From a virus (lineage: Duplodnaviria; Heunggongvirae; Uroviricota; Caudoviricetes), in the IMG/VR virus record IMGVR_UViG_2667527789_000019: a stretch of 14,879 nucleotides of DNA; one strand, written 5' to 3'. Below, in pieces: positions 9,001 through 14,879 of the stretch (positions within the stretch are counted from its first letter, which is position 1; every line of letters begins with the position of its first letter). A program made the position numbers.

Positions 9001-12000
9001 GTTACGGCTGACCCTGAATGATTTCGCCCCGTGCAATTGAAGCACCCAGCGGAGTTATTCAGGGTTTTTTATTGCCCGTCCACCAGCACCACATCTGTAG
9101 CATTGATGCGTATACATTCGCCGTCAATTGCACCATTCCGGCCCTCACCGATCCGCAGCGAGAGCATATAGCCAGACGGCGGGAAATATGCCTTGCGAAC
9201 TTCAGGATGCTGTAAATAAGACTGTTGACGATATGGGAATCAGACGGGATCGGCGACATTACGGGTTATGGAAATAACAGCCAGGTAAATTGGTGAATAT
9301 ACGGCAGGCTGCAATCAGAGCCGAACATAGCGGCCTCCGTCACCATTATCAGACAGTAGCGGTAGTCCTTCCATCACAGCAAAATGCTACCCACTTCACA
9401 GCCCCTTGGAAGCCTCTTCGATGGGGTGAAAAATCCCTGAAAAAATGCGCAAAAAACTGCGCAAAAAAGTGCGCAAATCGATCATAAAACCGATCACAAA
9501 ATCGATCACACAGACAAACAGAGCAAAGCCAGATATGACGCGGCTTGCAGGGGGAAAGGCCACCGGAAAAAGTGCGCAAAAAAATGCGCAAAACGAAACG
9601 CAACAGCCGCGCAAAACGAAACCGATACGCGATGATCGAAAAAGCGCGCAAATTTACCGGATTCGGGTAAGCAATTTTGCCTGATTTGGGCAAAATACGG
9701 TGACGCCGTAACAGTGACATTGACACCAAAACAGTGACACACAGGAGGGCCGATGACCGAACGTTCACCAACAGAGATAATTCACGGGATTATTGAAGAG
9801 CAGGAGGAACGCGAGTTAATCCTCATGATTGAAGAGCAGAGAGAACGCCAGCGCAAACAGGAGGCCACGCAGCCGGACAGCGTGAGCGCTGAAAATCAGG
9901 CTGATGTGACGTGATGGTGTCGAACTGAGTAGCTTTAAGCGACTCTGTGACTGGTTTTAAACGAGTCGCAAAAAGAGCCGGAGAAAAACCACGAATCTGG
10001 GGTTTTTTCTAAGCACGCTGTACACGGTGGAACATATGGTGGTCAGGAGACGGCAGGAGCAACGCCAGAACGCGCCCCCGTACCAGTGGCATAAGCCGGA
10101 GCGGTTACGGCGGTAACTTGTTGATTAAAAGGCGGCTCAATTCTGAGCCGGGTAGCTGACGGCGTTAACTGGCTGATATTGTTACAAAGCTCATTTTTGA
10201 GCTTTGGCCTAACCTACTGATATTTTCGGAAACCTCAATTTGAGGAGACCGCAAACGCAAAATTGCGCTGGCTACATTCCTCACTTCTGAGGACTGTTAA
10301 CAAGCTGGCTGAAAGACAGTCACAAGCTACGAAATTTTCGTAGTTTAACTTTCATCCAGTGCATCCCTGAATTACGGGTATGTAACCACAGCTATTACGA
10401 GGTGATTGTTGATGCGTGATATTCAGCAGGTTCTGGAACGCTGGGGAGCGTGGGCGGCAAATAATCGCGAGAATGTGACCTGGTCATCCGTTGCCGCAGG
10501 ATTTAAGGGGATTATTCCGGCAAAGATAACATCACGCTCACAGTGCTGTGACGATGATGCGATGGTGATATGCGGGTGCATAGCCCGTCTTTACCGGAAC
10601 AATCGCGATCTGCATGACTTGCTGGTTGATTATTACGTGTTGGGGGAGACGTTCATGGCGCTGGCACGGAAACATGGGTGCTCTGACACCTGTATAGGTA
10701 AACGCCTTCACAAAGCGGAGGGGGTTGTTGAAGGCATGTTGATGATGCTGGATGTGAAGCTGGAGATGGATCGGTATGTTGAGCGCGATTCAGTGACGGC
10801 ATAACGCGCATAAAAAAACCGCAGTCATGAGGAAACTGCGGTGGAGAAATACGGCTTGCCAATCAATCATGAAAAACGTAATCGCCTGATAATTATGCCA
10901 CGAGACAAAGGACGGTGCACCCTGAATGGTCATAATGACCACTCAGACCATCGAGGCAACCATAACGAACATCGTTACAGTTGGAGCTTTTACCCCGTTG
11001 GGGGAAAAGGTGCATACCTGAATCATCATTATGGTGATCAAGGGCATGTAAAGCCCACCAGCCTGATTAAAGGTTAACCGGAAAAAGCCAGGTATGGAGG
11101 GAGTGACTAGCCACGAACAAGCCGGACACCACCAGCAGAAGGTATTATGATTTTCGTAATACCTTTAGCAAAGCGTGAATCATCATTACCGTAGGGATGG
11201 TCATAATGACCACACCTTCCCCCACCGGAACAAGGAAGGCTGGCTTACGAAAATTTCGTAACCCTCCCCAGCACAATGTATTAAATAATCACTACAGGCC
11301 ATTGATTAAACTTAATTATCGCGAATCGCGAGAATTAGCCCCGCCGGAACAAGGAAAGGGAAATTACGAAAATTTCGTAAAATCCCCCCACATCTCCCAC
11401 GGTTGCCCGTTAAGTGCAAGCGCACAGGCACGACCTCATTAACCAGTTACCAGCGCTCACGCTCAAACATCCACAGCAATGGGGATAAATCGCACTCTGG
11501 CGCAATGTTCACTATCGGGGCGAGCATTCACCGGAAAACGTCATACAGGCTTACAGGCGGCTTAAAATTCGATGGGCGGAGGACCGGATGGGAATCGGGA
11601 GACCTGGACAAAAAGTGCAGGCCTCCATGACACGGTCAGGACAGTTTGTGTTTAACCAGAATATTTAGCGCCTGTATTGGGGCTTCGTGGAGCTCCCGCA
11701 GACATTCAGGGTCAGTAACATGTTCCTGGTATCTTGTTTTCTCAAGTAACAAGCGGTGCATATGCAGCATACGGGCAAGAGCCGCGCACACCTCCTCAAA
11801 TGCGGTATCCCGCTTACCGTCACTGTCAGAGCCACAAAACAGCGGTACAACCTCCACGCCGTCGCTGTGGGCCTTTAGCCAGGCATCAACCACGGTTAAA
11901 TCATCGGTGAAGAACCACGCACTGTTAGCGCTGAATCGCATTTTCCAGGCTTCCGGTACTGGTTGCGGGGAGTATGAATATGCTGGTGGTATCTTGTCGT

Positions 12001-14879
12001 GAGTATCCATAGGCTATCGTTCCGTCATTCTGTTATTCACCACAGCGCTAAAAACGCCATGAAGGAGCAGAATACCGATTGCCTCGTTTGCTGTATGAGG
12101 TGCTTACCACACATTGGGTACACAGATGAATCAGGCGGAAGTGTGATTACCGGAAAAAATCCATTTCAGTTTGAGGGAAAAAAAACCGTAGTGCGATAAC
12201 ACTACGGCATGCCACCAAAGAAACACAACAAGAGGTCAACAATGAGTAATGGACATGACCAGACGATTTTATCATGCCGGAACAAAAGTTATGTGACACA
12301 GTCGGATAAAAACAGGTAAAGCCCACCAGCTTCATAGGGGATAACCGGAAAAATTCCGGTAAATATTTGCCTGAGTAAGTCATCAAGCGCCTGCTAAATG
12401 TGTATAGAAATGTGTATAGGATTGATTTTAGAACATGTGGAAATGGCTTTATTACTGGTGGCATGGCTTGTTGTTCTGTTCCCTTCGCCGCTCCATGACA
12501 CTTCTTAAAGTCTACTAACTTACTGAATCCTAAGGGATACGGCTTAACGCCTTCCGATAGTTTTACTCACTGTAACCAACACTGTGACTAACTTTGTTGA
12601 AGTAGTGAGCAGACCTAAGGTCTCAGTACATGCTCAAGTCAAGAACCTACCTTTATCAGCGTAATGGTGTCTTTTACATCCGTCTTAGGATGAAGACCAC
12701 TAGTCGCCTGACCGCTTCGCTTCCTTCTCACAACCGTTATAAACTAGCGTCAGTATCTTTACGGACCAAGGATAGACGTACCGCTATGGCTCACTCACGG
12801 CACATCAAGTCAGCACTTAAAGCAATCCATGCAGACAACCCTAACGCCTCTTATGAGGAGCTACGGGAGCACCTGAAGACCATTGTCGAGTGGGAACTTA
12901 GTGTCAGCCGTGATGACCTGAACGACCCGGAGTCCTACCAGCTTTACGTTGACCAGTACGATGACATTAAGTCCAACCTTCGGGAAGCTGTAGCGACCGA
13001 GCGTCTGACTGTAGACCAGCATCGCTATATTAATGACGTTATCGGTGTGCTTAAGGCCTGTCAGGATAGACTCAATGGCGATAGCTCTGGCCTATTGTCT
13101 TACCTTGAGCCTGAGACTGGCAGTCTAAGACCGTCCGTCTCCCTATCTGTATTGGCAGAACCTGAAGTCCCTGAACCTAAAGCACTGACCCTCGCGTCTC
13201 TCATTGAGCAGTACGAGCAGGAGAACGCCCAGAACTGGAAGCCAGCGACCCTAAGCGAAAACCGAGCGTCACACTCTACGCTAATCGAGATATTCGACTA
13301 TCTGGATATTCAGGATGTCGGCAAGGCGACCCGTGCAGATATGCTCAGAGTTCGTGAAGTCCTCCAGCAGCTACCGAAGAACCGCAAGCAACGCTTTAAG
13401 TCTATGCCGCTGTCTGACTTGCTGAACCGGGAGTCTAAGACTGACTGTCTGGACGTCGTTACCATTAACAATAAATATCTTATCAAGATGGCTGCTGTGT
13501 TTAAGTGGGCGGTACGCAACGACTTGATAGCTAAGAACCTGACCGAAGGTCTTGAGCTGAAAGTCCCTCAGCGTAAAGCCTCCGACGCTCGTGATGCGTT
13601 CAGTCCTGAGCAGGTAGGGCAACTACTGGTCGCAGCTAAAGCGTACTCGCAGAAGACCTCAGGTAAGCCATACCATTATTACGTCACCGCTCTGGCTGCG
13701 ATTACAGGTGCGAGACTTAACGAGGTGGCCCAACTTCAGGTTAAAGATGTCAGGACCACTGAGGCTGGGACCGTTTTTATCCATATCAACGAAGACGATA
13801 GCAGCCTGCCGGGTAAGAGTATCAAGAACGCCCACAGTGACCGCTGTGTCCCGTTGGTAGATGGTGCTTATGGTTTTGTATTGGCTGACTTTATGTCACT
13901 CGTGGAAGACCGTAGAAAGACTGAGGGTGATAATGCTATGGTGTTCAATGGCCTCAAGCTAATGAAGAACGGCTACGGTGAGCAGGTTAGCAAGTGGTTT
14001 AACCGAACGTTGCTGCCCAAAGTCCTCGCTGACCGTAGCGGCTTAGCTTTTCACTCGTTTAGACATACAGTTGCGACCCAGTTAAAACAACATGGGGTCG
14101 AGTTAGCGTATGCTCAGGCGATTATGGGTCATAGCTCAGGGTCTATAACTTACGACCGTTACGCGAAAGAGGTCGAGGTGGAAACGCTGAAAGAAAAATT
14201 AGCGGAGTCATTGTCAGTAAAAAAATAGACGGAAAGTAATCGCATAGGGATAGCGGAACGTGAGGACGTAATGGTCAAAGAATTTTTAGTTAGCAAAGAA
14301 AATAAGCCTTCATATGAATGTATGAATACTGCTGAAACTTGTTTGGGGCTGGCTGGAATGGCTTCGGAAGATTGGCAACGTGAGCATCATTGCCGCACAG
14401 GTATAATATTTACTGCTTTTGCTATTGAGGCAATGTTCATCTTCTATAGAAAACAGGTTGACCCCGGCTACGATAAGACGCAGAAAGAGTGCAGAAAGAC
14501 AATGCACAAGAATACGTTAAAGTTGTGCGGTATAAACAATTATATGGGGACAAAACCTTACCAAATTATCAAAGAGTGTCTTGAGGTAAGAGACGCTATT
14601 GCTCACGGCGATTCGTATACTTCGAGCTTTAATTTCTCGGCGGATCATTTGGATAACCAAGACGATATTGCAAAAAGTGTCCTGGCGGTAAACTCTGAAC
14701 AATTTCGGGGATTAACTGTTGAGCGCCTTGCAAAATACATTGAAATGGCAAAGCATATTGACCATGAGATTTCTGATAATGGTTACAGGCCTTCTGAAGG
14801 TTACCTTCCAGCAGCCGAGCGCAGAAGTCTGATGTTAGCTTTTGGCGTCAGTGGTGTGTCAATGTGGCCCAGTGCTTGA

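Follow-up and report, generated by a model that had tools for sequence, protein, structure and literature searches.

Gram-negative phage-inducible chromosomal islands (PICIs) such as EcCICFT073 (PMC6092414) and EcCIMP1 (PMC11773190) carry an integrase gene at one end, followed by genes for AlpA, a primase, and PerC, and have no virion or lysis genes. We analyzed a stretch of 14,879 nucleotides (nt) filed as virus record IMGVR_UViG_2667527789_000019, hereafter the window, in which an earlier note had flagged positions 10927-12361 as a mosaic of repeats and palindromes, possibly a recombination junction, with an orphan minus-strand gene. Positions 1-12495, here called element 1, have the gene set of the Gram-negative PICIs (PMC6092414, PMC11773190). 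Our best explanation, to which as a whole we give a probability of about 75%, is that element 1 is a PICI-type phage satellite inserted at the 3′ end of a tRNA-Gly gene and that the flagged stretch is its mostly non-coding right tail (10805-12495). The case is largely ordinary, and its single curious feature is a set of palindromes derived from phage antirepressor genes.

Element 1 and Known Satellites

The window is Escherichia coli DNA, colinear with a chromosome stretch that begins ∼125 nt past the tRNA-Gly gene, with actS on one side and the ETT2 secretion island on the other. Of 5,426 complete E. coli genomes, 571 matched the 1.84 kb around the flagged stretch; apparent plasmid matches proved to be PICI sequence of chromosomal origin in records labeled as plasmids. 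Element 1 begins with the gene of a tyrosine integrase adjacent to its att site (int1, 40-1254; domains Phage_integrase, Phage_int_M, and Arm-DNA-bind_3) and further encodes AlpA (1798-2001; Phage_AlpA, E 1.7e-20), an Icd-like protein, a DUF927 primase-type protein (4182-6320; E 1.3e-41), SSB, ProQ/FinO, PerC, and a Q antiterminator. Neither the RefSeq annotation nor Pfam revealed virion structural or lysis genes in it. At 12.6 kb from att copy to att copy, it is of the size of the Gram-negative PICIs and fits the ∼10-20 kb of PICI-type satellites, and like those PICIs it has direct att repeats at a tRNA gene, the core copy in the tRNA reading TCCCTTCGCCCGCTCCA and the one at 12480-12495 reading TCCCTTCGCC-GCTCCA.

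The likeness extends to the right end, where EcCICFT073-like islands have in common with element 1 a module made of the palindrome pal1, hairpins, and the repeat rep47 (described below), and to the setting, as EcCIMP1, too, occupies a tRNA gene together with a second, tandem island. Unlike these PICIs, element 1 has no lambda-type cos and no homologues of Rpp, TerS, or capsid proteins (neither cos nor terS nor rpp was found in it), carries a Q933-type antiterminator and ProQ/FinO, and has a right-end module that is doubled and broken by phage scraps and a cargo cassette. A further comparison is with helper-embedded PICIs (PMC10111431): L003 and L004, satellites inserted in a prophage portal gene, carry pal1 and rep47 in the same order near the right end but differ from element 1 in their integrase clade and target and in having terS, genes for capsid and decoration proteins, and a lambda cos site.

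The Joint of Two Tandem Islands

The comparison with genomes holding a single element, which the earlier note had proposed, places the recombination joint to the base. Among 23 genomes that cover at least 80% of 10800-12640, the match ends at window position 12495 in 19 and runs on into the integrase gene of a second island, element 2, in four; in the 19 element-1-only genomes, chromosomal sequence follows past 12495. Integrase genes related to that of element 2 stand alone in hundreds of genomes, directly after tRNA-Gly, and there the match to the window begins at 12473/12479. The tRNA-Gly end reads ..TTCCCTTCGCCCGCTCCA, and an imperfect 16-nt copy of it, the core att TCCCTTCGCC-GCTCCA, occupies 12480-12495 on the plus strand and is followed by TGACAC. 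In the element-1-only genomes, the identical 16 nt, reading ..GCTCCA, are followed by ATTTATCTTC, the chromosomal flank, while genomes with only an element-2-type island have an intact tRNA-Gly, ..GCTCCA, followed by TGACC. Element 2 closes 6.4 kb downstream with a perfect 17-nt copy of att, after which ATTTATCTTC appears again. Because the single-element genomes break at exactly this point, the joint is placed at 12480-12495, and these bases are the attR of element 1 and the attL of the tandemly integrated element 2.

The joint lies ∼120 bases past the flagged interval. The boundary between two elements suspected by the earlier note does fall within the 1.8-kb gap in coding, together with a core att copy and arm-type repeats, but at 12400-12495 and therefore outside 10927-12361. 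The attR copy of the tRNA-Gly end is one C short, so that a damaged tRNA end would be either restored or left behind upon excision; attR damage has been reported as typical of PICIs (PMC10111431), which matches the one-base loss seen here.

Candidate binding sites of integrase 1 were found next to the joint, as two direct copies of GTGTATAG on the plus strand (12400-12419, starting at 12400 and 12412). The motif occurs four times in the window, against 0.23 copies expected by chance, the other two being inverted at 32-39 and 90-97; a related copy, GCGTATAG, lies at 3-10, and one further GTGTATAG is present just upstream of the window. GTGTATAG is confined to the two ends of element 1, and its copies are likely the arm-type sites of integrase 1. 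Site-specific recombination acts at 12480-12495, with integrase 1 probably positioned there by the GTGTATAG repeats on both sides. The arrangement is that of a lambda/P4-type attP in its core identical to a tRNA 3′ end, its arm repeats less than ∼100 bp away on both arms, and its Arm-DNA-bind_3 integrase; it differs in that the tRNA copy at attR is one base short and in that no site of an excisionase or of IHF was found. A different repeat, (A/G)TCTAC, has seven copies within ∼110 nt beside attL, in the stretch from tRNA-Gly to int1 that immediately precedes the window (L001 9085-9190). These are candidate sites of an excisionase/AlpA or of the integrase, and one copy of the repeat, AAAGTCTAC, also occurs past the joint at 12506-12515.

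Element 2 encodes an integrase of its own and is an independent island, integrated in tandem. It is 6.4 kb long, extends from 12496 to 14879 and onward beyond the window (L001 21697-28111), and closes with the att copy at L001 28095-28111, 15.6 kb into the element array of L001. Its integrase gene (12630-14228, plus strand, 532 amino acids [aa]) is the second recombinase, which the earlier note had placed just downstream of the flagged stretch, and the island also encodes a 202-aa protein with a weak HEPN-like match.

A Right-End Module Shared among PICIs

The repeats previously listed in the tail are real, with some adjustment of their extent. The palindrome pal1 (TGGTCATAATGACCA) occurs at 10927-10941 and 11198-11212, the identity reaching 17 nt; a search of both strands with up to three mismatches gave four matches, against 0.35 expected, a number reached in none of 200 shuffles. 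The second palindrome, pal2 (TTACGAAAATTTCGTAA), occurs at 11245-11261 and 11364-11380, with 0.01 matches expected by chance in the shuffling control, and the related copy at 10327 is a centre-inverted variant, CTACGAAATTTTCGTAG (10327-10343), which lies ∼70 nt upstream of the Q gene and has a form frequent in PICIs without Q and also found in homologues of a 92-aa phage gene (see below). The direct repeat given as ∼36 nt does form a pair but is 42 nt long (11220-11261 and 11339-11380; 83% identical), each copy ending in pal2. The two copies of the ∼47-nt repeat, rep47 (11045-11094 and 12313-12361; ∼80-87% identical with one 1-nt indel), flank the 124-aa minus-strand open reading frame (ORF; 11636-12010) as described. 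The low coding potential of the stretch was also borne out, there being no Pfam or PHROGs match among the other ORFs of 10805-12630. Additional repeats are ACCGGAAAAA, with five copies all on the plus strand, and TGAATCATCATTA, with two; further palindromes lie at 10956-10983, 10987-11009, 11139-11165, and 11313-11337, and two strong intrinsic terminators of the minus strand at 10808-10842 and 12175-12208.

The first terminator, just past the stop codon of Q and conserved in the sister islands L008 and L009, is followed by pal1 copy 1 (10922-10946), the dyad CAACCATAACGAACATCGTTACAGTTG (10956-10983), and the hairpin CTTTTACCCC-GTT-GGGGGAAAAG (10987-11009), whose stem varies among islands (CCACC/GGTGG, CCGCC/GGTGG). 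After these comes rep47 copy A (11045-11094), with CCACCAGC, the complement of Chi, at 11055-11062. The same succession of pal1, two hairpins, and rep47 (10922-11095) is found close to the right end in satellites whose integrases and targets differ from those of element 1, namely L003 and L004 (in a prophage portal gene), L054 (EcCICFT073-like, next to phoQ), and L005 (O157, next to dinD), each of which has its own arm repeats nearer the core. An exact-pattern scan of IMG/VR located rep47 in 73 contigs, mostly at a distance of a few hundred bases from an end of the contig, and it has no counterpart among 50,697 phage records. The window holds the module twice, the second pal1 (11197-11213, with TGAATCATCATTA copy 2 ahead of it at 11176-11188) and the second rep47 (copy B, 12313-12361, with the Chi complement at 12323-12330) being split by inserted material. 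Because satellites that differ in integrase, target, and arm repeats also carry them, pal1 and rep47 are a right-end module common to E. coli PICIs and not att sites.

Chi itself (GCTGGTGG) is strongly enriched in element 1, with 14 copies or 1.11 per kb, compared with 0-1 copies in element 2 and in the flanking chromosome (23 kb); PICI-like loci from IMG/VR, 692 kb in total, have 0.86 per kb. The sites in the window include 265, 2435, 5130, 11055, 11129, and 12323, the plus orientation dominating in the left two-thirds of element 1 and the minus orientation at its right end. In related PICIs, Chi orientation seemed polarized about cos (56:8 on the right of it), but the way in which loci were selected inflates this bias, and we base no claim on it.

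Repeats as Probable Scars of General Recombination

Alignment of four sister islands located the end points of their insertions and deletions. The window lacks 123 nt between two copies of AGCCGGACACC, L005 and L008 lack 119 nt (11262-11380) between the 42-nt repeats, and L009 lacks 195 nt between two copies of GAT(T/A)ACCGGAAAAA (12145-12162 and 12340-12357), the former of which reads GATTACCGGAAAAAATCC on the plus strand and is a direct repeat of the latter. A 0.54-kb cargo cassette on the minus strand (11602-12142), containing the 124-aa gene, is present in the window and L009, and its place is taken in L005 and L008 by ∼40 nt with a third pal2. Between the second 42-nt repeat and the cassette lies a 220-nt block (11381-11601) conserved in sister islands, whose L005 version aligns weakly with the 92-aa gene. 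Because the direct repeats coincide with the indel end points of sister islands, we interpret them as substrates or scars of general recombination. The proposal that the repeats are recombination junctions thus stands insofar as they mark recombination end points, but the process is ordinary indel shuffling between sister islands and not a site-specific one. The mosaic would have been produced by homologous or slipped recombination among the repeated tail modules and with helper phages. The latter are the source of dyad-bearing scraps of 25-50 nt, from P22_AR_N and Bro-N antirepressor genes and from the 92-aa gene, and the intact Q gene next to them came from a Shiga toxin (Stx)-type phage.

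The 124-aa ORF (11636-12010) is a real cargo gene, as judged from 13 homologue clusters that extend down to 50% identity and retain invariant motifs. The protein has no match in Pfam, PHROG, or PADLOC, and its AlphaFold model, with a predicted local distance difference test score (pLDDT) of 56, is too poor for a fold search. With regard to anti-phage defence, no known defence protein family was matched in these three resources. The strong terminator at 12175-12208, upstream of the gene on the same strand and conserved in islands that lack it, seems to insulate the gene.

Antirepressor-Derived Dyads

Antirepressors of temperate phages and satellites are subject to antisense or decoy control, as by P22 sar, P1/P7 c4, and the P4 CI RNA. 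The tail of element 1 contains several fragments of antirepressor (ant) genes and of a neighbor of such genes. The scrap at 11127-11176 encodes RFAKGITKIIIPSAGG in minus sense, matches a P22_AR_N-type antirepressor gene of Stx and Shigella phages with 90% identity over 50 nt (E 3e-14), and includes the palindrome at 11139-11165 and a Chi site at 11129-11136. The segment 11275-11338 (plus sense) encodes a piece of a Bro-N antirepressor, ..PLIKLNYRESREL.., and includes the dyad TAATTATCGCGAATCGCGAGAATTA at 11313-11337. Together with 9-14 flanking bases, pal2 is an antisense fragment of a 92-aa gene located directly upstream of Bro-N ant genes, and in 27 viral contigs from enterobacteria it is this gene that contains the pal2 17-mer.

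The P22_AR_N ant genes of four allele groups (phage loci L263-L342) are 95-100% conserved except for residues ∼36-70, and codons ∼50-60 of each allele form an inverted repeat of their own. Within the hypervariable cassette, this repeat is centred on a conserved Glu codon. Such allele-specific inverted repeats suggest that the gene contains an element acting at the nucleic-acid level or a hot spot of recombination. The tail matches the segment at four places. Apart from 11127-11176, these are pal1 copy 1 (10922-10946, repeated at 11197-11213; the hairpin segment of allele ‘CMVEMTIQL’, 84% over 25 nt, query nt 150-174), the hairpin-forming dyad CAACCATAACGAACATCGTTACAGTTG (10956-10983; the corresponding segment of allele ‘TITEIVMVA’, 82% over 28 nt, query nt 149-176), and 11018-11043 on the minus strand (allele ‘CIIEMMIQL’, 81% over 26 nt, query nt 149-174), which includes TGAATCATCATTA copy 1. 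The dyad of the 92-aa gene is 17-27 nt long and perfect, and lies within the coding sequence (..GEGYEIFVTP..; L011 1195-1225) of homologues that are 66-100% identical. In an unbiased set of 80 homologues (phage loci L183-L262) the pal2 dyad is retained, with compensatory pairs (TTACG/CGTAA, TTACA/TGTAA, and CTACG/CGTAG) that alter the encoded protein.

Several observations weigh against reading the tail as nothing more than a passive, scarred end of the satellite. Just the hypervariable hairpin segment (gene nt ∼140-187) of the four ant alleles is found there and nothing else of the genes, and the palindromes of the tail are equal to or better than those of the phage genes. Upstream of rep47, one or more dyads are present in 37 of 38 distinct contexts, with at least two allele types in 26 of the 38. 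The repeat rep47 is almost invariant and its flanks are variable, and the Chi complement CCACCAGC is present in every one of the 54 copies, also when the search imposes no bases at its positions. Finally, as no packaging site was found in the island, some cis-acting function of the tail may have gone unrecognised.

These observations bear on the alternative that survives best, in which the dyads would form a functional array of allele-specific hairpin copies acting as antisense or sponge RNA, as protein decoys, or as donors of gene conversion, and would couple the satellite to the antirepressor control of its helper. We hold this tentatively, as a minority possibility. It is favored by the match of a single ∼30-nt segment from four alleles at four separate places, by the fact that this segment is the hypervariable part of an otherwise conserved gene with an inverted repeat for each allele, by the upkeep of the pal2 dyad across the 80 homologues through protein-altering changes, and by the recurrence of dyads beside rep47 in the PICI contexts counted above. 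In addition, 11127-11176, the sole scrap long enough to be oriented, is antisense to the main direction of transcription of the island. Against it, three of the four allele matches are short, with E of 0.001-0.008 in a small search space, the palindromes leave their orientation ambiguous, and the Bro-N scrap is in sense orientation. RNAalifold gave no covariation signal for either strand of the pal1-to-rep47 stretch (14 sequences; covariation terms of −1.1 and +0.1 kcal/mol on the two strands), and the few G-U cases in this module, which favor the plus strand, represent too few independent events. Moreover, template switching driven by the palindromes could give the same pattern without any function. 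The narrower proposal, of a multi-specific antisense or sponge RNA or a protein decoy beside rep47, is slightly less probable. The dyads resemble the sar, c4, and CI RNA systems in being short structured elements linked to ant, with allele-specific specificity regions, and this is a resemblance only; unlike them, they lie in the tail of a satellite and not beside an ant gene.

The Q Antiterminator and pal2

The Q gene of element 1 (10412-10804, plus strand) belongs to the Q21/Q933W family (Pfam PF06530, E 2.5e-50; Q21 in PDB, E 5e-8), and its product is 89% identical in amino acids to the Q of Stx2 phages of the VT2-Sakai type. Comparison with L054 sets the limits of the Q cassette at ∼10349-10921; in islands without Q the flanking elements are ∼90 nt apart. 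The island thus shares Q with the late cassette of lambdoid and Stx phages (PMC9388147, 10.1101/651190) and, unlike them, has no cognate PR′-QBE-tR′ unit downstream: the TTACGWWCGTAA dyad of PR′, the pause element, and the tR′ terminator are absent downstream of Q, and no plus-strand terminator was found in 10000-12700.

Another reading takes pal2 (TTACG-N7-CGTAA) as the binding site of the island Q, in which case the tail would respond to Q or serve as a sink for it; we consider the link unlikely. In 37 of 42 homologue loci, Q is followed within ∼150 nt by a dyad, TTACG(TA/AT)CGTAA, with 5-nt half sites identical to those of pal2, which in VT2-Sakai overlaps the −35 of PR′; the island Q is without this canonical dyad, and exact pal2 occurs in all five PICI loci with Q and in none of the 75 without. 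However, the five loci with Q are one lineage, in which co-occurrence may be linkage, and pal2 is a fragment of the 92-aa phage gene, where the dyad exists without Q nearby. The spacer is 7 nt in place of 2 nt, so that the half-site spacing differs by 5 bp, and neither a sigma-70 promoter nor a plus-strand terminator stands beside pal2. The Q21 family, furthermore, binds a direct repeat of 8-bp subsites (10.1101/651190; PMC9388147). None of the tail repeats is shared by the 42 Q homologue loci outside E. coli. The strains that host the island are largely Shiga toxin-producing E. coli (STEC). In Stx producers, a Q of this type controls the expression of Stx2 from prophages, and the island Q could act in trans on the late promoters of Stx prophages.

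Other Readings of the Repeats

Very unlikely, in our view, is the proposal that the pal1 block encodes a small hydrophobic peptide (MFVMVALMVCVVIMTIQ..) or that the tail encodes small RNAs expressed from a promoter in rep47. A minus-strand ORF does pass through pal1 in several islands, a −35-like TTTACA/C at the left edge of rep47 is followed by a −10-like hexamer in three types of context, and the window has two minus-strand terminators. The ORF, however, is stopped at codon 10 in 4 of 12 variants, shows no third-position bias (6/7/10 variable columns by codon position), lacks a Shine-Dalgarno sequence, and has unrelated C-termini. As for the RNAs, a terminator lies leftward of rep47 in just 5 of 52 contexts, all of them from the Q cassette, and inspection by eye found no conserved motif for IHF or sigma-70 in rep47. 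Rfam 15 had no match at the gathering score in the whole window and only chance-level matches at E up to 5 in 9900-12650.

The earlier note suggested att sites, of the arm or core type, and the view that the listed repeats serve integrase 1 or 2 in this way has hardly any probability left. The repeats do lie less than 1.7 kb from a recombinase gene, and a small insert stands between the two 47-nt copies, as expected of a duplicated att. But the genomes diverge at 12495 and 12473/12479 and not at pal1, pal2, or the 42-nt or 47-nt repeat; the joint at 12480-12495 and the separately identified arm repeats at 12400-12419 include none of the listed repeats; and the same repeats accompany other integrases and insertion sites in other satellites. 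A duplication of att around a mini-element was rejected for rep47, as the insert between its copies contains no recombinase and the repeat is single in most PICIs.

The weakest reading, a packaging site (cos or pac) in the tail on the model of the two cos sites and novel cosB of EcCICFT073 (PMC6092414, PMC6739421), is very improbable: around lambda cosQ and cosB there is a faint likeness to the duplicated rep47 and the TTTCCGG motifs, but no lambda-type cosN (GGGCGGCGACCT) occurs within two substitutions in 10805-12495, a search for lambda cos flanks likewise found none in the tail, rep47 is missing from the phage records searched, and it is not cos, because related carriers of rep47 have a perfect lambda cos elsewhere, between rpp-like and terS (L003 6475; L054).

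Additional Features of Element 1

Some features of element 1 lie outside the tail. A 461-aa plus-strand ORF (2066-3451) with a weak Rha-domain match is unannotated in the matching RefSeq record, which instead places small minus-strand genes and an Icd-like fragment there. A 93-aa gene (9753-10117) that precedes the tail in other PICIs, with a product ending in ..WKKPERLRR, is frameshifted in the window, and RefSeq annotates just its first 53 codons. The non-coding stretch 9440-9640 has ∼7 iteron-like copies of (A/G)TGCGCAAAA and three of CGATCA(C/T)AAAA, and may be an origin or an array of regulator binding sites. Upstream of the tail module lies a cluster of short hairpins (window 10130-10300; L003 7470-7860; L054 5810-5990), for example CCTCAATTTGAGG, GCGCAAAATTGCGC, and GCTCATTTTTGAGC, whose stems vary among islands with the hairpin form retained.

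Implications

On our reading, the flagged stretch is the tail of a PICI-type satellite beside a tandem att junction, with a possibly interesting array of antirepressor-derived dyads. The attR/attL joint of two tandem tRNA-Gly islands, placed to the base, is useful for delimiting islands in STEC genomes. The 4- to 5-fold enrichment of Chi in PICI-type satellites suggests linear or concatemeric DNA protected from RecBCD, and the lineage described carries an intact Q933-type antiterminator, without a late promoter of its own, in strains that largely produce Shiga toxin. The dyads are scars of palindrome-mediated exchange with helper phages or, as the less probable alternative, a functional array. 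If the latter were true, the array could allow the satellite to monitor or influence antirepressor control in more than one potential helper, Stx phages included. The combination of a shared Chi-containing element with dyads from the hairpins of helper antirepressors is a hint of an unrecognised layer of cross-talk between satellites and their helpers.

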